NCBI GenBank assembly: GCA_040757555.1
Contig: JBFLWN010000006.1
Span: 5,748-69,747 of the forward strand
Length of the DNA: 64,000 bases
Origin: Patescibacteria group bacterium
GTDB taxonomy: Bacteria; Patescibacteriota; Minisyncoccia; UBA6257; GWB1-50-10
Reading direction: 5' to 3'
Below the pieces are notes generated by a model that had not been told where the DNA came from, did no database searches, and was given only the letters and a program-made list of their open reading frames with translations. Each line of letters opens with the position of its first letter. The stretch's first letter is position 1. Shown piece by piece: positions 22,489-39,373 of the stretch. A program made the translations under genes and the position numbers.

Positions 22489-25400
22489 TTATTTATTTTT
22501 CTTTATCGCAACTTTCATCGGCCACTCATCTATTTTGGTATCTATCTCCGCATGCAATATTTTTGGTTTCGAGAAAAGAATATTTTTCGCGTTTACTAAT
22601 TTCTTAAATTCAGTGTTCCATTTTGTTATCACAAACTTCAACTCCTCTGATGTTTCAATATATAACTCAATTACATCCTTTGGTTGTAATTTTGCGTCCT
22701 GACGTAAATCCTGAACAATCCTCGTAAGTTCGCGTAGCCACCCCTCTTCTTTTAATTCGTGGGTAATTACCGTATCGAGCACCATGTGGTCGTTTGTCTT
22801 CTCGGAAAAAATCACCTCTTTCACATTTATTTCATCTTTCAAAATATCAAGATACGCGTGTTTTCCTTTTAATAGCGATGTTTTTGAGTTGAGAGTAACC
22901 GAGGTAAGTGGTTGGCGCACCTTAATTCCTAACTCCGCACGTTTCGCAAGTGCGAGACTCGCCACAGCACGTACTTCATCCATACATGCAAATAAATCTT
23001 TATCAATAAACTTCTTTTGTGCTGTTGGCCACTCATCCAAGTGCACGGAAAGTTTTTTTCCGATAAGTGACTGATAGAGCGCCTCCGTAAAAAATGGGGT
23101 AAGCGGTGCCATAAGTTTACTTATTTCGAGAAGGACAAATCCAAGTACGCGTGTGGCGATTTCATAATCTTTCTTATTCTCGGGTTTTTGGAATCGCTTT
23201 CGTGAGCGTCGGATATACCACCTCGAAAGATCATCAACAAACGATTCGATTGCCTTTCCTGCGCTTCCGATATCATATGTTTCAAACCCCACTGTCGCCT
23301 TCTCGGTTGTTTCTGCAAATCTCCCCAATATCCACTTGTCGAGAAGCGGAAGGGACGCGGGAAGTGTTTTGTTTTTTACTTTTGCCCCATAAAGGTCGAA
23401 AAACACAAATGAATTATAGAGAAGTGAAAAAAGCTGGCGGGAAACCTTTCCGAGTTCCATTTCGTCAAAACGCTTTGATTCCCCCGGAGGATTTGTAGTA
23501 TAAAAATACCATCGTGCCGCATCGATACCATATTTTTTTATCATGTCCCACGGATCGACGATATTTCCTTTTGATTTGGACATTTTCTGCCCGTTCTTAT
23601 CGAGAATAAGCCCCGAAGAAATAACATTTTTAAACGGCGTCCCCTTTCCGGTAAGCACCCCAATTGCAAGAAGTGTATAAAACCATCCACGTGTTTGATC
23701 AATTCCTTCGGAGATATAATCCGCAGGGTAGGCAAGTTTATTTTTTTTATCGAATGGATAATGTGATTGTGCAAATGGCATTGCACCCGAATCAAACCAT
23801 ACATCAACTACTTCGGGTATTCGTTTCATAACTCCCTTGCATTTTTTACAAGGAAACTTAAATTCGTCGATAAATGGACGATGCAAGTCGAGTGATCCGG
23901 TCGCATCCCGCGGAACGTTTTTCATCATTCCCTTCTCGAATCCGGCATTTCTTATATAATCAAATCCTCTTTTTTCCTTTTCAATTAATTGATCTTCTGT
24001 GGACCATCCGCTGATAATGGAGTGGAGCATGTAGACGGGCCCATCGTGCGTCACCACAAGGATTGTTTTGTTTTTATATTTCTTTTCTGTCTCAATAAGA
24101 AATTCAAATAAACGTTTTCGCAAATCCGTATGATTTTCCCCATTCGGCATTCGTTTTGTGAATTTCTCTAAACGTGAACTATAATACGGCTGAAACGACT
24201 CATATTTTTTTCCATTGAAATCCCCAAAGTTGAATTCCCGAAGTCGCGCATCAAAGATGACCTTATCCTTAAATCCGACAATTTCCTTTACGGTCTCGGC
24301 GGTTTGTTTTGTTCGTGTTATATCCGAAGCAAAAATCATGTCTATTTTTTCTTTCTTCAGTATGCGCGCAGTTTTTTCCACCTGCGTTCTTCCCAAAAGT
24401 GTAAGTGGCAACTTCACCGGTTCGGGCCAACAATTCAACAAATGTTTTGTGTTATTCTCTGCCTGCCCATGACGCATAAAAATATACCGATTTGTCCCCC
24501 CTCCCAACGCCTCCTTAAACTCATCAACGCTCCCCACCACTCTCCGTGCCTCACATGAATCACACTCCCAGATTGGAAGTGGGGTGCCCCAATACCGTTC
24601 ACGAGATATTGCCCAATCTTTTACCTCACGAATCCATTCACCAAACCTTCCCTCTTTTAGATGACTGGGAACCCAATTTATTTTTTTGTTTTCAGTAATA
24701 AGTTTTTCCCTCAATGCACTCATCCCAATAAACCACGAACTGCGCGCATAATAGAGGAGCGCGGAATTGCAACGCCAGCAAAATGGATATTCGTGCTTAT
24801 ATTTTTCGGTTCGCAAGAAAAAATTCTTCTTTCTCAATGATTCAAATATTTTTTCATCTGTGTTTGGATTTTTTGCGGGCAATCCGGAAAATTCCTCAAT
24901 TTCTTCCACAAATCTTCCTTGTTCGTTCACTGTGTGGTATTCGGGTAGTCCAATTTTTTTCCCAAGCACATAATCATCCTCTCCATACATAACTGCAGTG
25001 TGCACCACACCAGTTCCGTCTGTTGTGGTAACAAAATCCGCAGCATATACTTTATAAGCTTTTTCTTTAGGGTCTATTTTTTTGATCGCGGGTATTTTGA
25101 ATAACGGCTCATACAAAAGCCCCACAAGATCTTTTCCTTTTATTTTTTCGATTTCGGTATATCCAATTTCGAGAATCGACAATCGCGGGGTTGCGAGAAT
25201 ATACGTTTCGGATATTTTTCCCTCTTTTATCGCCACAATCGAATAATCGACGTGTGGAGCGATTGCAAGCGCAATGTTTCCAGGAAGCGTCCATGGCGTG
25301 GTCGTCCAAGAAAGAATATAGGTATGTGGTCCCACTATTCTTTTTCCGATTTTCTGTTTTTCTTTTAATTTGAATTTCAAGTACACAGAGTTTTCCTCAA

Positions 25401-25995
25401 CCTCACGATACCCAAGTGCCAATTCGTGCGATGAGAGTCCAGTGCCACACCGAGGACACCACGGAACTACTTTGTGTCCACGGTATAATAATTTTTTTTC
25501 TGCAGTTGATTTAAAAATCCACCACAGTGTTTCTATATATGAGTTTTGATACGGAATATATGGGTCTTTGAGATCAAGCCAAAACCCCATTCGTTTGGTA
25601 AGCCTTTCCCACTCATCCTTATATTTCCACACCGATTCTTTGCATTTTTGGTTGAATTCGGCAATCCCAAATTTTTCAATCTCTTTTTTTGAGGAAAGGC
25701 CAAGTTGTTTTTCAACCTCAAGCTCAACGGGTAACCCATGCACATCCCACCCCCCTTTTCGCGGAACTACATATCCACGCATGGTTTTATATCGCAACAC
25801 CACATCCTTAAATGAGCGCGAAAGAACATGATGAATTCCCGGTTTTCCATTTGCTGTTGGGGGACCTTCATAAAAAACAAATTTTTTCCCCTTGTTTTTT
25901 GTAAGCGAGCGCTTAAAAATATCGTGTGCGTCCCAAAAATCAAGGACTTTTTCTTCGACGTCAGGAAGTGAAAATTTATCTAATCGTTTAAGCAT
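22489..25995 (-). CDS. ileS: isoleucyl-tRNA synthetase, type 2 (eukaryote/archaeal-like), with an inserted histidine-phosphatase-superfamily domain (ORF track extends to 26049; MLKRLDK at 25995 is the likely start)
   Basis: HIGH-region PPTANGKPGIHHVLS; CP1 editing domain; zinc knuckle WCPRCGT / CDSCEA; KMSKS. The DLHRPFIDE...CKKCKG...VDVWFDSGAMPFAQ block matches type 2 IleRS. An extra ~180 aa containing RHGQAENN ... VVTHDG sits between the zinc knuckle and DLHRP. Confidence 0.9.
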   Translation of the reverse strand: MLKRLDKFSLPDVEEKVLDFWDAHDIFKRSLTKNKGKKFVFYEGPPTANGKPGIHHVLSRSFKDVVLRYKTMRGYVVPRKGGWDVHGLPVELEVEKQLGLSSKKEIEKFGIAEFNQKCKESVWKYKDEWERLTKRMGFWLDLKDPYIPYQNSYIETLWWIFKSTAEKKLLYRGHKVVPWCPRCGTGLSSHELALGYREVEENSVYLKFKLKEKQKIGKRIVGPHTYILSWTTTPWTLPGNIALAIAPHVDYSIVAIKEGKISETYILATPRLSILEIGYTEIEKIKGKDLVGLLYEPLFKIPAIKKIDPKEKAYKVYAADFVTTTDGTGVVHTAVMYGEDDYVLGKKIGLPEYHTVNEQGRFVEEIEEFSGLPAKNPNTDEKIFESLRKKNFFLRTEKYKHEYPFCWRCNSALLYYARSSWFIGMSALREKLITENKKINWVPSHLKEGRFGEWIREVKDWAISRERYWGTPLPIWECDSCEARRVVGSVDEFKEALGGGTNRYIFMRHGQAENNTKHLLNCWPEPVKLPLTLLGRTQVEKTARILKKEKIDMIFASDITRTKQTAETVKEIVGFKDKVIFDARLREFNFGDFNGKKYESFQPYYSSRLEKFTKRMPNGENHTDLRKRLFEFLIETEKKYKNKTILVVTHDGPVYMLHSIISGWSTEDQLIEKEKRGFDYIRNAGFEKGMMKNVPRDATGSLDLHRPFIDEFKFPCKKCKGVMKRIPEVVDVWFDSGAMPFAQSHYPFDKKNKLAYPADYISEGIDQTRGWFYTLLAIGVLTGKGTPFKNVISSGLILDKNGQKMSKSKGNIVDPWDMIKKYGIDAARWYFYTTNPPGESKRFDEMELGKVSRQLFSLLYNSFVFFDLYGAKVKNKTLPASLPLLDKWILGRFAETTEKATVGFETYDIGSAGKAIESFVDDLSRWYIRRSRKRFQKPENKKDYEIATRVLGFVLLEISKLMAPLTPFFTEALYQSLIGKKLSVHLDEWPTAQKKFIDKDLFACMDEVRAVASLALAKRAELGIKVRQPLTSVTLNSKTSLLKGKHAYLDILKDEINVKEVIFSEKTNDHMVLDTVITHELKEEGWLRELTRIVQDLRQDAKLQPKDVIELYIETSEELKFVITKWNTEFKKLVNAKNILFSKPKILHAEIDTKIDEWPMKVAIKKNK

Positions 25996-26063
25996 AATTA
26001 TCAATTTTAGACGAAAAGAAGGCTTTTTACAAAAGCCTTCATTCCACACATTCCCCCCTGAGA

Positions 26064-28217: not shown

Positions 28218-28536
28218 GGGGGTGCACGTATCGACAGAGATTATATGTATACATAGCAGGTCGAGCTGAATATCTCGAAAACTGTTCAACAAATTATAAC
28301 TGCCAATTTTAACGCAGTCCCCGCGCTCGCTTACGCGTAGTACGGCATCGGCCCTTCAGGTCTCATAGAGGATCACCGGTGTTATAATGAGAACCGCTCA
28401 GAGTATGGATCTACTTCGCTCCATCCTGAGTTAAATAACGCAAAGTACCATTGTTCTGAACTTTTAGTTCAAAAACTAAGCTTGTAGAATATGTATAGAT
28501 AAATTTTTGGAAGAGGGTTCAATCTCTCCACCTCCA
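28218..28536 (+). ncRNA. ssrA: tmRNA (ssrA), ~319 nt, standard non-permuted form
   Basis: Immediately downstream of smpB. 5' end GGGGGTG...ATCGACAG (tmRNA 5' consensus-like). 3' tRNA-like end with T-arm GAGGG-TTCAAT-CTCTC and acceptor CACCTCC pairing to GGGGGTG with G3-U70 (alanine identity); discriminator A. Internal tag reading frame GCC AAT TTT AAC GCA GTC CCC GCG CTC GCT TAC GCG TAG (28302-28340). Terminator aaccccttagtggggttttt follows. Confidence 0.7.
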
Positions 28537-28549
28537 CAAATAAAACCCC

Positions 28550-31849: not shown

Positions 31850-32193
31850 CACGCGTAAAACGAGGGACAATCGCTCATAAAAAACGAGAACGATTACTCA
31901 AAAAAACAAAAGGATATCGATGGGGAAGAAAAAGTAAGGAACGTGCGGCAAAAGATGCACTACTTCACGGGCTCTCACGATCATTCAAGGGAAGAAAAGA
32001 AAAAAAGAGAGAATATCGATCATTATGGCAGACACAAATAAATGCCGCGACACGAATAAACGGAACAAAATACAGTACGTTTATGAATAACCTCAAGAAA
32101 AAGAATATACTGATAGACCGAAAAATACTCGCCCAAATCGCAAAAGAATATCCAGAGGTATTTAAAAAAATTGTAGAAGAATCACTAAAATAA
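31846..32193 (+). CDS. rplT: 50S ribosomal protein L20
   Basis: MTRVKRGTIAHKKRERLLKKTKGYRWGR... is the canonical L20 N-terminus. 115 aa. Bidirectional terminator ctaccccgatgtacaccggggtag plus T-tract at 32199-32232. Confidence 0.9.
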   Translation: MTRVKRGTIAHKKRERLLKKTKGYRWGRKSKERAAKDALLHGLSRSFKGRKEKKREYRSLWQTQINAATRINGTKYSTFMNNLKKKNILIDRKILAQIAKEYPEVFKKIVEESLK

Positions 32194-32225
32194 AAAACTA
32201 CCCCGATGTACACCGGGGTAGTTTT

Positions 32226-32762
32226 TTATTGTTCATTTTTTATATGTATATTTTTGGGCCGCGAACTATCTCCCCCTCGCTCACGCACAGTAGTGCTCTT
32301 TTTTTGTTGGTCTATATGGCGATGCGATAATCCCTTTTTTCGGACAATAAGATCGTGGGCATTCTTCAAATTCTTTTTTAGGTTCGGATGGATAAGCATA
32401 CGAAGAGCGTCCCGATAGAGAAACCATCCATATCCCTGTTGTTCTGGATCGGGAGGAAGACGAACGGTTACTTTATCTGTTTCGGCGAGATAATAACTTA
32501 CTGTTTTAAAAACTTTTTCTTTGTCTTTAATAAAGGTAAACCTATCTTGAACCCTGAACCAGTCAATAAAAAGAAGGTCTTTTTTTCCTATTCCCGTTTC
32601 TTCATACACCTCACGCAACGCGGCGGGGAAATTTTTTTCTCCTTCATTTAATTTTCCTTTTGGAAAATTCCAATATCTTCCGCGATGATATAAAAGTAAA
32701 AATTTCGGGCCCTCGCTCGTCATGCGATAAATAATCATTCCTGCACTTATTTCTTTTGTCAT
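32226..32762 (-). CDS. NUDIX hydrolase
   Basis: Nudix box GKLNEGEKNFPAALREVYEETGI (Gx5Ex7REVxEETGI). 178 aa. Confidence 0.75.
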   Translation of the reverse strand: MTKEISAGMIIYRMTSEGPKFLLLYHRGRYWNFPKGKLNEGEKNFPAALREVYEETGIGKKDLLFIDWFRVQDRFTFIKDKEKVFKTVSYYLAETDKVTVRLPPDPEQQGYGWFLYRDALRMLIHPNLKKNLKNAHDLIVRKKGLSHRHIDQQKKSTTVRERGGDSSRPKNIHIKNEQ

Positions 32763-32773
32763 ATATAAATAAT

Positions 32774-33442
32774 TTATCTTCCGAGATTTATGGGGGTGTG
32801 ATCACGAAACGTCTCTGTTTTTTCTGAAGTTGTTTTTGGAAGAATAAGGTGAGGCACATAAAAAAGAATAAATGCTCCCGCAAATGATAGTATTCCTACA
32901 AGAACAAATATCGCTTGAAACCCAAAAACCCCACCAATTACTCCCCCCAGAAGAGCAGTGATTCCGTGTGCAAATCCAATGGTAGTACTGCTGAGCGACC
33001 AATTAAATGCTGCGTGAGTCTTATCAACGTGTCGGGAAAATATTGCAGACCACGAAGGGACATAAAGACCCATGGCAATCGCATGTATAAATTGAACCAC
33101 ATAAAGCCCCACAACGGTATGTATTGTTAAAAACATCATGGCTGAAAAACCAGCAAGTACCAATCCAAACACAAGTGTATAGAAATCATCTTTTTCGCCC
33201 TCACGCTTATCTATGAGAATAGCAACAGGAATTTGGATAAACGACTTTACAATCCAATAAATTGCCGACGTCATCCCAACAGTAATGAGTGTTGCCCCAA
33301 CAACATCTTCAAGAATAAAAATCGAAAAAATCGGGCCAATGAGTCCCCACCCCCCCAAAAATATCAGATCGGAAACAACAAAATATTTTACTACTTTATT
33401 TATTTTAAGATCTCCAAAATCGACATGAAAATGTGTGTGCAT
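32774..33442 (-). CDS. 6-TM MFS-like half-size membrane protein
   Basis: 222 aa with six hydrophobic helices resembling one six-helix bundle of a major-facilitator transporter. No partner half is adjacent (upstream is the Clp ATPase). Confidence 0.4.
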   Translation of the reverse strand: MHTHFHVDFGDLKINKVVKYFVVSDLIFLGGWGLIGPIFSIFILEDVVGATLITVGMTSAIYWIVKSFIQIPVAILIDKREGEKDDFYTLVFGLVLAGFSAMMFLTIHTVVGLYVVQFIHAIAMGLYVPSWSAIFSRHVDKTHAAFNWSLSSTTIGFAHGITALLGGVIGGVFGFQAIFVLVGILSFAGAFILFYVPHLILPKTTSEKTETFRDHTPINLGR

Positions 33443-33454
33443 ATATTTTATATA

Positions 33455-36034
33455 TTACTCTTTAATGTGGAATACAAAATCAGATCCTTCATACACCAAC
33501 AAAATAGTGTTCCCTCTTCCGACTTCTTTTTTTAATATTTTTTCTGCGAGTACCCCGCGAATTTTTTCGGAAATCACTTGTCGAAGAGGACGAGCACCAA
33601 ATACTGGGCTGTATCCAAGCTCCCCAATTTTTTGTATTGCACTTTCTTCTACATGAAGCGTGATTCCGTGGACCTCACGGAGAAGTTCGGCCACTTCATG
33701 TACCAACAATCCCGCGACTTGCTCTATTTCTTCCCTGTTAAGATTCCTAAACACAACAACGTCAGAAAATCTGTTGATGAGCTCCGGTTTAAAATAGTCG
33801 GTAAGCTTCTTCTTTAGTTGCTCCCCAATTTCTTCAATTGTTTTTCCCCCCTCCACCTCCTCTTTTATAAACTGTGAGTGTGCGTTTGATGTCGCGATAA
33901 TAATAGTATTCTCAAAATTTACCGTTCTTCCTAATCCATCACTCAATCTTCCATCGTCAAAAACCTGAAGAAAGATATTTAATACATCAGGATGTGCTTT
34001 TTCAAACTCATCCAACAAAATAAGGCTGTATGGTTCCTGCATCACCCCATCAGTAAGTGCCCCACTTTTTGTTCCGTCGGGAGTTCCGATAAGCCTAAAA
34101 ATACTCTGTTTATCTTGGTATTCTGACATATCAAACCGTTGCATTAAGTCTTTTGATCCAAATTGTATTTTTGCAAGTATCTTTGCAAGCTCCGTCTTTC
34201 CAACCCCAGTTGGACCAACAAATAAAAACGTTGCGATTGGCCCCCCCTGGCGCGAAAGTCCGCTCCGATATTCGCGAAGCGCTTGCGCAACATTACGCAC
34301 CGCAACCTTTTGATTTATTAATTTTTTGTGAATTATCTCTTCCAAATTAAGAAGTTGTTCCGCCTCCAGCCCAGATGCTTTTTGTATTGGGATCTTGCTT
34401 TGTTTTTCTGCAATATCAATCACAAAATCTTGGGTGAGAACTTTTTCTTTCAAGTGCTCCGCTTGTACAATTGCCTCTTTTAAAAGATCTGACGCACTTC
34501 CCGGAAGGAGTTTATTTCTAAAATACCTATGCGCCAACTCGACGGACTTTCTAATTGCTTTAAACGTGATAAAAACCTTAAAATCGTTTTCAAGAAAAAT
34601 ACTACGATATACCAGGAAGCGTGTAGCTTCTTCTTCAGAAATTTCATCAATCTGAACTACATCAAATTGATTTAAAAAGTCTGTACGGGGTTCTATATAT
34701 GATTTAAACTCTCTCGGATAGGTATCTCCAATAACAGGAATTTCTTGGTTTTCAATTATTGGCAACAAAAGATCTATCACGTTAATCGCTTGAGTTGTGG
34801 TGGTTCGAAAAAGATCATGGATGTTTGGAATAAAAAGCACAATATTCCCTGCGCTTACTATATCTTGAACCATTTTTTGCATTCGATCAGTGAGTTGTTC
34901 TTGTGTTGCACCGGAAATGAGTTTTGAGATGTCGAGTGAAATAAGTCTTTTATCAAACAACACCTTAGGAACATTATCTTTCACCATTTGGAGCGCCAAG
35001 TGTGCAACAATAGTTGATTTTCCTGACCCTGGATCGCCTACCAACAAGACGTTTGGTTTTCCGGGGCGAGAAATAACACGAAGAATTTCTTCATATTCTT
35101 GATCGTGACCAATAAGAAACCCAATCTTTTCTCTGCGCACCATTTCGGTAAGATCGCTTCCATATTGATCCAAAAATGGTGTTGGCCGCGACGTCCAAGC
35201 TCGGTTTATCACCCTCTTTCGTATTGCTTTTGACTCATATACAAGACCACCTAAAAATGAAGGGAGACTCTTAATCCCCGAAAGAAAGCGAGTGTATCTT
35301 CCGAAAATAATCGCCTCTGCAACATCACCAGGAAGAATATTAAAAAGATTTAATGTTTTTTGTATGGGCGAATATCCACTTGATATGATTGCGGCAAACA
35401 CATTCCTGGGTTCTATATATTTTTCATGAACTGCACATGCGTTGTTATATGCCCCTTCCGCAATTGAGGAAACTATCTCATATAATTCCTCTTTTTTTCT
35501 TTTTGTTGTCGAATCAAGGTGTTGAGAAATCTTTTCTGCAAACTCCGCGTGACGAATATCAAGCCGAGTGAGAACTTTCTGTATGTCTCTTCTCTTTATG
35601 AGTTCCAAAAGCATAACACGATAAGGATCTTCTCCCGTCATAAATGAACGGCGAAACCCATAACCAAGTATTCTGTATGTGGGGGTGGTACACGCGAGTG
35701 CGATGTTTTGATCTTTTTTTTCTTTTATTTCTAGAATTGTTTTCTCACCCTTTCGCGCATGAAGAAGTCTGTCAAAAAGAAATATTCCAAGAAGAAGAGA
35801 AAACCAACGAAGCGATTCGATGTCAGAAAAAAACAAAAGCACACAAACAGACACAGAAAATATGTAGGCCGAATAAGTCACAAAACGCACGGTAGTTTCT
35901 CCAATACCAGATAAAAATAATCGCTGTTCTTTAAAATAAATATTCATATGATTATGAGGTGAGTGTTTTATATAAGAGAAATAGTGGAATAAGAAACCAC
36001 AAAACATAGAGAAGAACAGCACCAATAAATACAC
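33455..36034 (-). CDS. ClpB/ClpC-like double-AAA+ chaperone ATPase with an N-terminal hydrophobic (transmembrane) extension; probable start at Met30 (35947), just after the stop of upstream ORF 35952..36296
   Basis: AAA1 Walker A VLLVGDPGSGKST; AAA2 Walker A FLFVGPTGVGKTELAKILA; sensor-2 GARPLRQVISEKI; short inter-AAA linker (no long ClpB M-domain); no IGF/LGF ClpP loop seen. A Clp_N-like repeat (IEPRNVFAAII) lies between the TM region and AAA1. The first ~100 aa contain 2-3 hydrophobic helices. Confidence 0.75.
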   Translation of the reverse strand: MYLLVLFFSMFCGFLFHYFSYIKHSPHNHMNIYFKEQRLFLSGIGETTVRFVTYSAYIFSVSVCVLLFFSDIESLRWFSLLLGIFLFDRLLHARKGEKTILEIKEKKDQNIALACTTPTYRILGYGFRRSFMTGEDPYRVMLLELIKRRDIQKVLTRLDIRHAEFAEKISQHLDSTTKRKKEELYEIVSSIAEGAYNNACAVHEKYIEPRNVFAAIISSGYSPIQKTLNLFNILPGDVAEAIIFGRYTRFLSGIKSLPSFLGGLVYESKAIRKRVINRAWTSRPTPFLDQYGSDLTEMVRREKIGFLIGHDQEYEEILRVISRPGKPNVLLVGDPGSGKSTIVAHLALQMVKDNVPKVLFDKRLISLDISKLISGATQEQLTDRMQKMVQDIVSAGNIVLFIPNIHDLFRTTTTQAINVIDLLLPIIENQEIPVIGDTYPREFKSYIEPRTDFLNQFDVVQIDEISEEEATRFLVYRSIFLENDFKVFITFKAIRKSVELAHRYFRNKLLPGSASDLLKEAIVQAEHLKEKVLTQDFVIDIAEKQSKIPIQKASGLEAEQLLNLEEIIHKKLINQKVAVRNVAQALREYRSGLSRQGGPIATFLFVGPTGVGKTELAKILAKIQFGSKDLMQRFDMSEYQDKQSIFRLIGTPDGTKSGALTDGVMQEPYSLILLDEFEKAHPDVLNIFLQVFDDGRLSDGLGRTVNFENTIIIATSNAHSQFIKEEVEGGKTIEEIGEQLKKKLTDYFKPELINRFSDVVVFRNLNREEIEQVAGLLVHEVAELLREVHGITLHVEESAIQKIGELGYSPVFGARPLRQVISEKIRGVLAEKILKKEVGRGNTILLVYEGSDFVFHIKE

Positions 36035-36296
36035 ATATATAAATTGCGGTTGTTATCACAAGACGGACAATACGAAATAAAAACCCAAACACATATCCAA
36101 TAAAGGAATAATCACCATAAAGAGGTTTAAAAAGATTTTTTGCAGTAATTTTCCACGCAAAAACCCTATCCATTGACTCAAATCGATTAATGACAAAATT
36201 AAGATACATTCGAATGCTTTTCACATACCAATGTCTTAAAAATTCAAATATTCTATAAAAAAACCTTTCTATGAGATAGACTGCGGTAAAATTCAT
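35952..36296 (-). CDS. hypothetical membrane protein (overlaps the Clp ORF 5' region in another frame)
   Basis: 114 aa with a C-terminal hydrophobic region (YSFIGYVFGFLFRIVRLVITTAIYICVFIGAVLLYVLWFLIPLFLLY). Its stop at 35952 abuts the likely Met30 start of the Clp ATPase. Confidence 0.3.
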   Translation of the reverse strand: MNFTAVYLIERFFYRIFEFLRHWYVKSIRMYLNFVINRFESMDRVFAWKITAKNLFKPLYGDYSFIGYVFGFLFRIVRLVITTAIYICVFIGAVLLYVLWFLIPLFLLYKTLTS

Positions 36297-36352
36297 AATA
36301 ACTCAACTTATATTTAATTATACTCAACAAAATAGGAAAGCGCACTTTTGCC

Positions 36353-36976
36353 CTACAAAAGCTTTTCTTGATCCCCTGAATTCATAGTTTCTTCGTGGCT
36401 CGGTTCTTTTTGTATTAACGTATTATATTTTTTTATCACTAACGGAAGTTTATAAAAACTCTCCGTCAATTTTTTTAGCATTTCCGTTGAGCGCAATCCT
36501 GCGGCGGGATGAAGAAGTGGGACAAGAAGTTTTCCGTTTCCAATTCTGAATATTTTCCCCTGATCTCGAGTTATTTTTGCGGTAGGAATAAAATAATTCA
36601 TTGAAAAACGCCCAAGTGTTGCAATAATTTTCGGACTAATAATTTCTATTTGTCTTGTGAGGTATGGCCTATATGCCTCAATTTCTTCGGGAAGCGGGTC
36701 CCTATTCATTGGGGGGCGACGTTTCACAATATTTGTAATATATACATCCTCGCGTTTCCACCCAACCGCCTCGGTAAGTTTATCAAGTAATTTTCCTGAT
36801 CGCCCAACAAATGGGCGTTTTAGTTCGTCTTCTTTTTTCCCGGGCGCTTCTCCAATAAACAATATGTCGCAGTTAATATTTCCCTCACCAAATACGAGGT
36901 TTGATTCTCGAAGCGGGAGAGATGCGTCTTCTATCAATTCTTTTTCAAGTTTCTTTAATAACTCTTCTTTAGACAT
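36353..36976 (-). CDS. uracil-DNA glycosylase, family 4
   Basis: Family-4 UDG motif A GEAPGKKEDELKRPFVGRSGKLL (GEAPG...PFVG.SG). 207 aa. Coupled to murB (14-nt gap). Confidence 0.8.
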   Translation of the reverse strand: MSKEELLKKLEKELIEDASLPLRESNLVFGEGNINCDILFIGEAPGKKEDELKRPFVGRSGKLLDKLTEAVGWKREDVYITNIVKRRPPMNRDPLPEEIEAYRPYLTRQIEIISPKIIATLGRFSMNYFIPTAKITRDQGKIFRIGNGKLLVPLLHPAAGLRSTEMLKKLTESFYKLPLVIKKYNTLIQKEPSHEETMNSGDQEKLL

Positions 36977-36990
36977 GGTTCAATTATAAA

Positions 36991-37911
36991 TCAAAAACGA
37001 ATTATTTCCTCTTCTAAATTGATTTTAAATCTTGTTTTTACCATTTTTTTAAGAAGGGTCGTAATGTTGTTTACATCTTCTGCTGTTGCGTTCCCTATAT
37101 TGATAAAAAGATTCCCGTGATAATCCGCAACTTTTATTCCTCCTACACACATTCCCTTCGCCCCAATAGATTCAAGAAGGTATCCGGCCGGAATTTTTCC
37201 TTCAATAATTTTTGAAGTGTCAATTTTTTTTATTGTATTTTTGGAAATGTTTTTTGCTAAAACGTTTTTGAAAAAACTTCCGGGACATTTTAGTGTGGGG
37301 GGGTATTTTTTGTTTCGTATCAGTCTTATATTTTTTGAGACGTCACGCGCGGTGTTTTTTTTGTTTCTTTTGAGAATAATTTTTACCCTCAAAATAATCA
37401 GATTTTTTCTCTTAAAAAGACTTTCCCGATATCCAAATTTACACATATTCCGACTCATCCAAAATATCTTTTTTCCGTCAAATATCTGAACCATATGTAC
37501 TACTTCGGAAATAGAGTGTCCATATGCCCCCGCATTTCCGTATACCGCACCCCCAATTGTTCCGGGAATCGCGGTGAGTGACTCAAGTCCACTATATCCA
37601 TCGCGAAGTGATTTTTTTACAACCGAATCAAGCAACACCCCGGAATCAACAATATATTTGTTTCTATCCCGTACTATTTTTCCCCCACGGACACAAACTA
37701 ACAATTCTTTGAAATTATTTCTTTCAAAAAATATATTACTGCCCCCAGCAAAGATTTTCATGGAAAATTTTTTCCCTTTTGCCCACAAGGCCGCGGATAC
37801 AACATCTTCAGGTTTTTTTGCCAAAAAAAATAACTCGGCATTTCCCCCAATGCCAAATGTTGAATATTTTTTAAGCAAAATATTTTTTTGAATCTTTATA
37901 TTATCTTCCAT
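36991..37911 (-). CDS. murB: UDP-N-acetylenolpyruvoylglucosamine reductase MurB (ORF track extends to 37995 across the tRNA; ATG at 37911 MEDNIKIQ is the real start)
   Basis: FAD-binding N-terminus YSTFGIGGNAELFFLAKKPEDVVSAALWAKGKKFSMKIFAGGSNIFF and the MurB C-terminal domain. The upstream in-frame extension overlaps a folded tRNA, so the start is set at the internal Met. Confidence 0.85.
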   Translation of the reverse strand: MEDNIKIQKNILLKKYSTFGIGGNAELFFLAKKPEDVVSAALWAKGKKFSMKIFAGGSNIFFERNNFKELLVCVRGGKIVRDRNKYIVDSGVLLDSVVKKSLRDGYSGLESLTAIPGTIGGAVYGNAGAYGHSISEVVHMVQIFDGKKIFWMSRNMCKFGYRESLFKRKNLIILRVKIILKRNKKNTARDVSKNIRLIRNKKYPPTLKCPGSFFKNVLAKNISKNTIKKIDTSKIIEGKIPAGYLLESIGAKGMCVGGIKVADYHGNLFINIGNATAEDVNNITTLLKKMVKTRFKINLEEEIIRF

Positions 37912-37985
37912 GGTGCCCTCGAGAGGAGTTGAACCTCTATTTCCAGCTTCGGAGGCCAGCGTTCTATCCATTAAACTACGAGGAC
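37911..37985 (-). tRNA. tRNA-Arg (anticodon CCG), CCA encoded; sandwiched between the Wzy-like gene stop and the murB start
   Basis: Minus-strand read GTCCTCG-TA-GTT..AAC-G-CTGGC-CTCCGAA-GCTGG-AAAT-AGAGG-TTCAACT-CCTCT-CGAGGGC-A-CCA. Acceptor 7 bp with one U-G; T-arm perfect; anticodon loop CTCCGAA (U33, CCG, A37). The anticodon stem has two G-U pairs. Confidence 0.7.
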
Positions 37986-39373
37986 GACCCCTCACTTACT
38001 CCCATCATTATTCCCAAAACCAACCAAAGCATCAACCTCCCCGACTCAAGTGTCCAAAGAAAGTGATCAAACAACCCAAACACAAGAAGGTTGGAAAAGA
38101 GAATAACACCAAACCAAAAATATTCCGGTGGAGACCTCAAAAAAATAAAAAATCTCCTACCTAAAGAAATGGGGAGGGCGACAAAACCAATAGACAAAAA
38201 AGAAAGGAGGCCACATATTCCAAGTTCAGACGCGATAAGAAGATAAAGATTGTGGATTGGTTGCCAATCAATGGAATTATGAATTTTATATTTTCCGTAT
38301 AAATTATTTTCCTTTGAAAAAAAGATTTGATTCCCAACTCCAACGCCACGTGGTTCTTGTAACACAATATCTCGCCCAATGTTGTTATAGAGCACCCGAT
38401 AGTTTACCGATGGTTCGTTTCGAGAAAGTGTCGCTCTGGGGAAAATTGCCCACCCAAGTGAAAGAAAAAGAAGCATAAACAGTGCACACACAATAAAAAA
38501 GAGATGGAGCGTCTGTTTTCGTGTGTGTTCATACAAAAAACCAACACACAATGAAATAACAATTCCAAATAAAGAAACAATCCATCCCGAACGAGAAAAT
38601 GTAAGTACAATACCAACAAGGATTATAAATAAGGAAATAGAGATAATTGTTCGGAAAAATAATCGCTTTTTTAGAAAATCTTTAAAAGATGATATGGTCG
38701 TCTGTTTTCTATTTATCCATAAAAAGAGGCACGAAATAAGCCCCACCACAAGAAATCCGGCAAGTATGTTTGCATGAGCCATCGTACCATATGCACGAAG
38801 AAGGGGTACCCCAAACACGGGAAAGCGAGCGACATTGGTGGAAAATTCATTAATAATCGATTCCCCTAAAAACCACACCCCAACACTTTTTTGTAAGAAA
38901 AACTGAAAAAATCCAACAAAAGCCTGAAATACGGCAGCGGAGACAAACACATAGACAACGGGGGTGATAGAAAAAATATTTTTCTTTATCAAAAAAAACA
39001 AAAAAATACCTTGAAATATAGTATAGAGAAGACGGAGAAAAAAATATGCGCTTATAAAAATGTGAGAAGAAAAAAGAAGGGAGAGGAGAGAAAAAAAAGA
39101 AAATATGGAGAGAAAAACGAATATCTTTTTTTTCTCTTTACAGAAGGAGGAAAACTCCTGAAACATATTCTTAAAATTTCCAAAAAACGCGGTATATATG
39201 AAGAAAAACGAAAGGAGAAATAGTATGTCACTCAAAAAGACAAACACCGCGTCAAACTCGCTTGTTCCCCCAGTAAAAGAATAGATAAATTTTTTTGTTC
39301 CAAGGGGTATTGAAAAGAGAAACAAAAAAAATACAATACGTGAAATATTTTTATTCTGTAGAATGTTTGTCAT
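37976..39373 (-). CDS. O-antigen ligase/polymerase-like (Wzy_C domain) polytopic membrane protein
   Basis: 465 aa, ~10-12 TM helices, with the Wzy_C-type motif ILTFSRSGWIVSLFGI in a periplasmic loop region. The last three codons overlap the 5' end of tRNA-Arg(CCG). Confidence 0.5.
   Translation of the reverse strand: MTNILQNKNISRIVFFLFLFSIPLGTKKFIYSFTGGTSEFDAVFVFLSDILFLLSFFFIYTAFFGNFKNMFQEFSSFCKEKKKIFVFLSIFSFFSLLSLLFSSHIFISAYFFLRLLYTIFQGIFLFFLIKKNIFSITPVVYVFVSAAVFQAFVGFFQFFLQKSVGVWFLGESIINEFSTNVARFPVFGVPLLRAYGTMAHANILAGFLVVGLISCLFLWINRKQTTISSFKDFLKKRLFFRTIISISLFIILVGIVLTFSRSGWIVSLFGIVISLCVGFLYEHTRKQTLHLFFIVCALFMLLFLSLGWAIFPRATLSRNEPSVNYRVLYNNIGRDIVLQEPRGVGVGNQIFFSKENNLYGKYKIHNSIDWQPIHNLYLLIASELGICGLLSFLSIGFVALPISLGRRFFIFLRSPPEYFWFGVILFSNLLVFGLFDHFLWTLESGRLMLWLVLGIMMGVSEGSSS

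Follow-up and report, generated by a model that had tools for sequence, protein, structure and literature searches.

Clp/Hsp100 proteins are textbook soluble threading machines, and their pore-loop tyrosines, like their split into a ClpB type and a ClpP-partner type, are held to be defining. A gene on the minus strand of a 64,000-nucleotide (nt) stretch of a Patescibacteria contig (JBFLWN010000006.1, positions 5,748 to 69,747; 'the window' below) raises the question of which kind of Clp machine it encodes. The protein is a Clp/Hsp100 derivative that fails the defining tests of both types. Together with the gene for a small membrane protein directly upstream, it is a two-gene module of Patescibacteria, mostly Paceibacteria (database records name Jorgensenbacteria, Wolfebacteria, Brennerbacteria and Paceibacterota). 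The family breaks several Clp rules together, having a putative anchor, a first ATPase ring (D1) predicted to be dead, no pore tyrosines, neither M-domain nor ClpP loop, and a membrane partner of its own. This anatomy is well supported; from it we infer function, and this Clp family probably works unlike any studied Clp chaperone.

Extent and family of the Clp gene

The two genes and the spacer between them are as follows.

33455..35947, minus strand: Clp/Hsp100-derived ATPase gene, 830 amino acids (aa) plus stop, with its ATG at 35947
35948..35951, minus strand: spacer TCAT, between the stop codon of the small gene (35952-35954) and the ATG of the Clp gene
35952..36296, minus strand: small membrane protein gene, 114 aa plus stop; residues 1-78 of the product are helical and basic, and its C-terminal helix is strongly hydrophobic

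The longest open reading frame (ORF) here is 33455-36034 on the minus strand, with a GTG start at 36034. A preliminary description of this DNA took it to encode a double-AAA+ Clp/Hsp100 protein, and the Pfam matches of the ORF agree (AAA, 329-435; AAA_lid_9; AAA_2, 599-758; ClpB_D2-small). By Pfam and Foldseek the class I Clp/Hsp100 layout is present, with two tandem AAA+ modules and a C-terminal D2-small domain. The ATG at 35947 is the Met30 of that description, and residues of the Clp protein are counted from it unless stated otherwise. A homologue search from Met30 gave 120 proteins with 54-91% identity, most of them ~830 aa long at 96-100% coverage. A few were called as 812-822 aa from a slightly later start, and the full-length ones open with M..YFKEPRL. 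NCBI MEW6617437.1, from a Patescibacteria metagenome-assembled genome, is the exact 830-aa sequence. The lengths and N-termini of the homologues and the NCBI entry therefore place the gene at 33455-35947, and the GTG start at 36034 was rejected.

A third hydrophobic helix, MYLLVLFFSMFCGFLF (MYLLVLFF...), had been offered as an option for the longest start. It lies upstream of Met30 and needs the GTG at 36034, and the stretch overlaps, in another frame, the hydrophobic C-terminus of the 114-aa ORF. The helix is thus an artefact, the upstream gene read out of frame.

The AlphaFold2 (AF2) model of the Clp protein, built with a 106-sequence alignment as input, had a mean confidence score (pLDDT) of 82.6. 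Its best Foldseek matches were ClpC, ClpB and ClpA (E-values 1e-42 to 1e-56), with ClpC chains at the top. The NCBIfam models for ClpB, ClpA, ClpK, ClpG and ClpV all matched the ORF, all far under their cut-offs. TIGR03346 (ClpB) scored 479.5 bits against a cut-off of 1232.1. TIGR02639 (ClpA) scored 421.8 bits against 993.15, aligning in one stretch over residues 142-844 counted from GTG 36034, which are 113-815 from the true start. PADLOC gave only generic AAA_2-type matches for the Clp protein (DolB, PDC-M37B), which were not taken as evidence for a defence system.

Catalytic and pore motifs of the two rings

Motifs were compared through HMMER alignments to Thermus thermophilus ClpB (1qvr) and Staphylococcus aureus ClpC (6em8). 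Family column counts come from 121 sequences aligned with MAFFT at its faster settings. The same motifs were checked in 77 Clp genes from species loci, counting only those where the motif patterns matched, and in 35 distant full-length members.

34448..35179, minus strand: D1 (AAA1), residues ~257-500, a degenerate ring predicted to be catalytically dead
35015-35038, minus strand: D1 Walker A, GDPGSGKS, kept
34883-34915, minus strand: D1 pore loop, SGATQEQLTDR, no tyrosine
34817-34837, minus strand: D1 Walker B, LFIPNIH, in place of hhhhDE
34661-34678, minus strand: D1 arginine-finger site, FLNQFD, in place of ALERRFQ
33458..34330, minus strand: D2 (AAA2 plus D2-small), residues ~540-830, the only ring predicted to be a competent ATPase
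34193-34216, minus strand: D2 Walker A, GPTGVGKT
34052..34087, minus strand: D2 pore-1 loop, GTPDGTKSGALT, in place of the canonical GAPPGYVGYEEGGQLT; 4 residues shorter, polar and without an aromatic residue
33992-34018, minus strand: D2 Walker B, LLDEFEKAH

In D1 only the Walker A motif (GxPGxGKS) is retained, with its lysine present in 111 of the 121 sequences. The DE of Walker B has become PN (P at the Asp position in 106/121, N at the Glu position in 92/121). The paired arginine fingers RR have become NQ, with Q at the second Arg position in 119/121 and a family form FL[ED]QF. The pore loop AGAKYRGEFE has been replaced by A[ND]A[TP]PEVL, in which the tyrosine position is deleted. The 77 species-locus genes had the same changes wherever the patterns matched. 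A simple pattern search of the 35 distant members recovered the D1 Walker A in 9 of them; the D2 Walker motifs were intact in 33. Judged by its sequence motifs, D1 is catalytically dead, with only the nucleotide-binding loop kept.

D2 keeps its catalytic motifs. Walker A, Walker B, sensor-1 (TSN), the arginine finger NRF (PELINRF) and sensor-2 (GARPLR) are invariant in all 121 sequences, and D2 is thus predicted to be the sole catalytically competent ring. Its pore loop has been rebuilt. In place of GAPPGYVGYEEGGQLT the family has G[TN]PDG[ES][RK][TS]G[AT]LT (core PDG-x-[RK]-[TS]-G), shorter by 4 residues and polar in all 121 aligned homologues, and no aromatic residue was among the five commonest residues at any column of the loop in the 121 sequences. 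The D2 pore segments that could be captured by pattern (60 of the 77 species genes) all had 9 residues and no tyrosine. The loop was likewise shortened and non-aromatic in distant members where the pattern matched.

These results change how the protein was first seen. The preliminary description had listed a canonical AAA1 module, which does not hold given LFIPNIH as Walker B, FLNQFD in place of ALERRFQ and a pore loop without tyrosine. Nor does its wider picture, of a normal unfoldase with two canonical AAA modules on an FtsH-style tether, fit a D1 that appears dead and two rings with no aromatic pore residue.

M-domain and ClpP docking

ClpB residues ~406-505, which form the M-domain, have no counterpart in the protein, and the HMMER match to ClpB splits in two at this point. 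About 40 residues of the ClpC M-domain are also unmatched in the alignment. The AF2 model passes straight from D1 to D2 with no coiled coil between them. The site at which ClpA, ClpC and ClpX carry their ClpP-docking loop is the following segment.

33782..33892, minus strand: segment between sensor-1 (TSN) and the arginine finger (FKPE), TSNAHSQFIKEEVEGGKTIEEIGEQLKKKLTDYFKPE

It aligns to ClpB (1qvr) without gaps, whereas ClpC (6em8) needs insertions. No ClpP-docking tripeptide ([ILVM]-G-[FLIM]) was found in TSNAHSQFIKEEVEGGKTIEEIGEQLKKKLTDYFKPE, nor in the corresponding 29-aa segment of any of 73 species genes. The earlier suggestion that the protein lacks both the long M-domain and a ClpP loop is borne out by the ClpB and ClpC alignments and this 73-gene scan. 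So is the view that it matches neither the disaggregase nor the protease-partner subtype: M-domain and docking loop are both missing, and the TIGR03346 and TIGR02639 scores both fall below cut-off. The family is labelled 'ATP-dependent Clp protease ATP-binding subunit' in databases, a name that its sequence does not support.

There is no clpP within the 64-kb window. In 5 of the 80 loci examined (L036, L055, L062, L074 and L080), clpP lies 1.3-2 kb upstream of the module on the same strand, with an unrelated dehydrogenase gene between them. It also shares a 382,930-bp Wolfebacteria contig with the module, and the link was seen in a Wolfebacteria-like subclade (contigs of 241,547 and 382,930 bp). 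Thus at least some carriers of the module have ClpP.

The N-terminal hydrophobic hairpin

The region in front of D1 contains four elements.

35909..35947, minus strand: conserved N-terminal peptide MNIYFKEQRLFLS, consensus YFKEPRLxLS from alignments, predicted to be cytoplasmic
35831..35908, minus strand: hydrophobic helix 1, residues 14-39 (AF2 helix, pLDDT >90)
35762..35818, minus strand: hydrophobic helix 2, residues 44-62, ending in the conserved LFLxDR (AF2 helix, pLDDT >90)
35276..35737, minus strand: divergent all-helical N-domain, residues 71-224 (AF2 helices, pLDDT ~85-92)

All homologues share one layout: the N-peptide YFKEPRLxLSxxGEFxVR, a hydrophobic helix, a turn (FSD..) and a second helix with LFLxDR. 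The turn between helices 1 and 2 is 4 residues long (FSDI). In the alignment the residues of helix 1 vary across the family with hydrophobicity kept, and in helix 2 F56, L57, D59 and R60 are at least 90% conserved. The hairpin was present in the 121 close homologues, the 65 measurable species-locus genes and the 35 distant full-length members. The two hydrophobic helices first noticed here lie where they had been placed, at residues 14-39 and 44-62 by hydropathy, AF2 and insertion energy. That the hydrophobic extension is translated is also upheld; it is conserved and family-defining, and the full-length orthologues start upstream of the hairpin.

Insertion energies were calculated on the Hessa scale for the best 19-residue windows, and the figures are approximate. 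Helix 1 had a median of -0.05 kcal/mol and was below 0 in 55/106 sequences; helix 2, with a median of +3.8 kcal/mol, is weakly hydrophobic. The hairpin stands out from the rest of the protein, where the best window anywhere in residues 100-830 had a median of +8 kcal/mol. Lysine plus arginine averaged 3.2 before the hairpin (first 21 residues), 0.7 in the turn and 4.6 after it. This pattern fits an in-in topology in which both hairpin ends would be cytoplasmic, as the ATPase requires. Tethering could be by a true hairpin, by a monotopic anchor, or by anchoring aided by the strong transmembrane helix of the partner protein.

Queried with residues 1-249, phmmer matched only 156 of 1.84 billion cluster representatives, in every case at the N-terminus of the matched protein; the full-length ones were 804-851 aa long. 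The search retrieved no canonical Clp proteins. Hairpin and N-domain therefore define a narrow family, the N-domain having diverged too far to retrieve ordinary Clp proteins. Pfam gave no match for residues 1-249 even at E ≤ 1, so the Clp_N-like repeat that had been reported is not found by Pfam in this protein. There are slight hints in its favour: PF02861 (Clp_N) is precomputed for 6/120 homologues, the NCBIfam ClpA model aligns starting at its position 30, and the AF2 model is helical here. The N-domain is possibly derived from Clp_N.

Nine loci (L033, L051, L054, L055, L059, L074, L077, L080 and L081) form a divergent subclade with a shorter Clp N-peptide and an extra basic segment (LPRLSRR...) directly after hairpin helix 2. 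Of the five loci that have clpP a short way upstream, three (L055, L074 and L080) are in this group.

A small membrane protein precedes the Clp protein

Homologues of the 114-aa protein fall into 78 clusters of ~113-120 aa, all from Patescibacteria and all unannotated. The N-terminal part is strongly conserved (RFFYRIxEFLRHWYVKS ... LAWKIT.KNLFKPLY.DYS.IGY..GF.FR..RL). Pfam, NCBIfam, PHROGs and PADLOC gave no match. The AF2 model (pLDDT 91.6) has helices at 2-46, 48-53 and 65-113, two of them long, and Foldseek found nothing below E = 4.9 for it in the PDB. The C-terminal helix had a median insertion energy of -3.2 kcal/mol and was below 0 in 73/75 sequences. The first 78 residues carry 11 lysines and arginines against 5 aspartates and glutamates. 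These features point to tail-anchoring, with the head of the protein in the cytoplasm.

In the NCBI annotation (AB1333_03420, P0127) the small gene starts at an internal Met and encodes 85 aa. Orthologues back the 114-aa form, and the exact 114-aa sequence was absent from the protein collection searched.

The gene pair is conserved

One genome per species (GTDB) was scanned, and relatives of the small protein were found in 169 genomes; 80 of those loci were examined. A Clp D2 lay downstream of the small gene on the same strand in 77/80, and a hairpin-coding region followed it directly in 70/80. Clp genes with the hydrophobic extension, for which a search of other genomes had been proposed, are present across these species loci. 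The spacing of the two genes was -17 to +22 nt in 48 of the 65 measurable loci (commonest values -4, +1 and +4), within an overall range of -17 to over +100 nt. Flanking genes differ. The window and its close relatives have MurB-UDG-pair, and a distant subclade has ClpP-dehydrogenase-pair. The pair is therefore conserved beyond general gene order.

In two loci, L074 (5320-7533) and L062, the small gene and the Clp gene are separated by a gene for a 737-aa TMEM260-like/TPR protein, putatively of the protein O-mannosyltransferase type. L078 was the sole full-length locus with a small gene but no Clp match within 5 kb downstream, and there the pair may have separated.

In the window the 114-aa ORF ends 4 bases before ATG 35947; that it stops at the Met30 start and has a hydrophobic C-terminus had been noted. 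Two explanations had been offered for this arrangement. Coupled genes are what the comparison supports; a single gene split by a frameshift is contradicted by the separate lengths, starts and stops kept across assemblies.

Neighbouring genes and other features of the window

The gene that follows Clp encodes a membrane protein.

32774..33442, minus strand: half-size MFS-type membrane protein (222 aa, ~6 helices), starting 12 nt after the Clp stop

Pfam MFS_1 is matched at profile positions 6-173 of 347, and NCBI calls the protein 'MFS transporter' (MEW6617436.1). A homologue lies directly downstream of Clp in 44/80 loci and elsewhere in the locus in 2 more; other genes follow Clp in the rest, for example PolX in L001. 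The half-MFS protein is a frequent, not an obligatory, companion, with a weaker link to the pair than its two members have to each other, and is a candidate partner or client of the pair.

A scan of 32000-37200 for promoters and terminators found promoter-like sites no more often than expected by chance, and no convincing terminator inside the cluster. A perfect TATAAT lies at 36317-36322 on the minus strand, 20 nt upstream of the ATG of the small gene, in the 56-nt gap after the UDG gene. It could be the promoter of the pair; it has no -35 match and so was not listed by the consensus scan. At 32189-32230, between the convergent L20 and NUDIX genes, a hairpin with a 17-bp stem is flanked by T-runs on both sides. 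It is probably a bidirectional terminator closing the string of minus-strand genes that contains the Clp module.

Three further features lie in the window. The longest MurB ORF (36991-37995, minus strand) contains a tRNA gene (37914-37985, minus strand) within its 5' end. This ORF is consequently too long, and translation of MurB must begin further downstream, probably at MEDNIKIQ.... A tmRNA gene (28218-28539, plus strand) scored 104 bits, and in related loci smpB is a few kb from the Clp module. The minus-strand gene at 22489-26049 encodes a class I tRNA synthetase of 1186 aa with an unusual insertion, His_Phos_1 at residues 523-685 inside the synthetase; Pfam also matches tRNA-synt_1, Anticodon_1 and DUF5915.

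Proposed mode of action and alternatives

On balance, and with modest confidence, we favour a ClpP-independent, membrane-tethered remodelling ATPase that is powered by one ring and works with a small membrane cofactor. A Clp-type hexamer would be tethered on the cytoplasmic side of the membrane, both hairpin ends lying in the cytoplasm. Hairpin and N-domain are joined by a short linker (~10-20 residues), which would bring the N-domain/D1 face of the hexamer up against the bilayer. ATP hydrolysis by D2 alone would drive the conformational work, and the small protein would be a membrane-embedded cofactor serving as anchor, adaptor or regulator. The complex may act without ClpP on membrane-associated targets, either by remodelling or disassembly or through a weak, non-canonical grip. 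Such a mode would be unlike the processive threading carried out by the tyrosine paddles of ClpB, ClpA and ClpC, because both rings are without aromatic paddles.

Several points weigh against this proposal. Hexamer formation, orientation and partner binding are all steps that we infer. Helix 2 is weakly hydrophobic by its predicted insertion energy (median +3.8), and half of the sequences have a borderline helix 1. In compact genomes with co-directional genes, adjacency is a weaker sign of physical interaction than elsewhere. The loss of pore tyrosines speaks against canonical threading without proving that translocation is absent. Finally, with clpP close upstream in 5/80 loci, a non-canonical link to ClpP may exist.

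The protein might instead be a conventional tethered unfoldase which threads in the manner of FtsH or Msp1, alone or feeding a protease, and for which the hairpin serves localisation only. An N-terminal anchor does put the usual substrate-entry face of Clp proteins (N-domain/D1) at the membrane, D2 is fully competent, the fold matches ClpC, ClpB and ClpA, and clpP is found both in the five loci just mentioned and on the 382,930-bp Wolfebacteria contig. However, both pore-1 loops are non-aromatic, the D2 loop being short and polar wherever it was scored, and D1 is predicted to be unable to hydrolyse ATP. The docking tripeptide occurs in 0/73 genes, and the clpP that is nearby is separated from the module by the dehydrogenase gene. 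Threading of this kind would be possible if non-aromatic loops still grip substrate; we regard it as unlikely, while giving it more weight than any alternative that follows. It is improbable that the hairpin lies outside the membrane as a buried oligomerisation or partner-binding element, with membrane contact through the small partner only. The median of +3.8 for helix 2 and its conserved Asp-Arg pair would suit such a role, as would a helix 1 that is below 0 in only 55/106 sequences, and the partner has a much stronger transmembrane helix. Helix 1, though, varies freely and yet remains hydrophobic, as expected of a lipid-facing helix; charges cluster at the ends of the hairpin and not in its turn, and the hairpin stands at the extreme N-terminus in all 156 representatives. 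Even so placed, it would leave the complex at the membrane.

That a frameshift or sequencing error has split one membrane-domain gene into two ORFs is suggested by the four bases between stop and start and by the hydrophobicity of both ORFs at the junction. It has practically no chance of being correct: the ~114 and ~830 aa forms are kept in dozens of independent assemblies with their own starts and stops, the spacing runs from -17 to over +100 nt with a whole gene between in two loci, and there are no fused full-length orthologues among the 156 representatives. The lost D1 motifs and the frequent absence of the D1 Walker A in distant members would be explained by a Clp paralogue without function, decaying in a reduced genome. 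This is very improbable, since the D2 catalytic residues are invariant in 121/121, the replacement pore loop PDG-x-[RK]-[TS]-G is itself conserved, and at least 169 species genomes preserve the length and the gene order.

If a one-ring remodelling ATPase at the membrane is the right description, the module would make non-threading AAA+ action at membranes, the open question for Torsins, tractable in a bacterial system. It would also be a lead on envelope and membrane-protein maintenance in Patescibacteria, whose reduced proteostasis is poorly understood, and would correct an automatic annotation. A bolder version, doubtful and held at slightly less strength than the tethered unfoldase, is that the family is a bacterial counterpart of the Torsin principle: a membrane-embedded Hsp100 derivative that has abandoned threading and remodels or gates a membrane complex with a single active ring, a small cofactor and possibly the half-MFS protein as a channel. 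If true, this would be a class of AAA+ membrane machine not recognised before and confined to ultra-small episymbiotic bacteria, and the combination of anchored Clp, no pore tyrosines and a transmembrane cofactor would have evolved outside eukaryotes. In full-text literature searches no account of a bacterial Clp protein that is membrane-anchored or tyrosine-less turned up, and on Clp proteins of Patescibacteria nothing beyond TM7x transcriptomes.

Comparison with known systems

ClpB/Hsp104 (T. thermophilus, 1qvr) is the best sequence match (388 bits) and shares the two AAA+ modules with D2-small. The segment from sensor-1 to the arginine finger is of equal length, gapless and without a ClpP loop in both. 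Unlike ClpB, the family has no coiled-coil M-domain, its D1 appears dead, its pore tyrosines are gone and it has an N-terminal hydrophobic hairpin.

With ClpA, ClpC and ClpE the likeness is one of architecture. As in ClpA, D1 joins D2 directly, and the overall length is also similar to that of ClpA; ClpC chains are the top Foldseek matches. However, there is no IGL, VGF or LGF docking loop, no ClpC half M-domain, no pore tyrosine and, by prediction, no active D1. The small gene immediately upstream recalls E. coli, where clpS lies in front of clpA. In contrast to that arrangement, the upstream protein here is a membrane protein without a match to ClpS, MecA or any other Pfam family.

FtsH and Msp1/ATAD1 resemble the family in their N-terminal anchor, in a ring whose entry face is toward the membrane and in a presumed membrane role. 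The single AAA module of FtsH belongs to a different clade, and FtsH further carries a periplasmic domain flanked by its two transmembrane helices, an aromatic pore loop and an M41 peptidase. The Clp protein has none of these, and neither M41 nor any other peptidase domain was among its Pfam matches.

ClpI of Actinomycetota (PMC10149685) is also a lineage-specific double-ring Clp class, discovered through sequence analysis, with a variable N-domain and sub-classes without the ClpP motif. As described there, it differs in keeping its ATPase modules intact, its unfolding and translocation motifs and an M-domain of ClpC length, and no membrane anchor is described for it there. ClpI shows that lineage-specific Clp classes continue to be discovered (PMC10149685).

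Torsins, ATPases of the eukaryotic endoplasmic reticulum and nuclear envelope, are related to Clp/Hsp100 proteins, associate with membranes through an N-terminal hydrophobic domain, lack aromatic pore loops and work with the transmembrane cofactors LAP1 and LULL1 (PMC5425593). The likeness to the family lies in having only one working, D2-type AAA+ module, non-aromatic pore loops, N-terminal hydrophobic attachment and membrane-spanning partners. Torsins differ in having one AAA+ domain, no arginine finger of their own (the cofactor supplies it) and a location in the lumen of the endoplasmic reticulum, whereas the present family is bacterial, has an invariant D2 arginine finger NRF and keeps an apparently dead D1 ring. 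The Torsin cofactor is a degenerate AAA+ fold and the partner here a 114-aa helical protein. By this analogy the family would resemble Torsins more closely than FtsH or ClpB, a likeness of function and not of membership.

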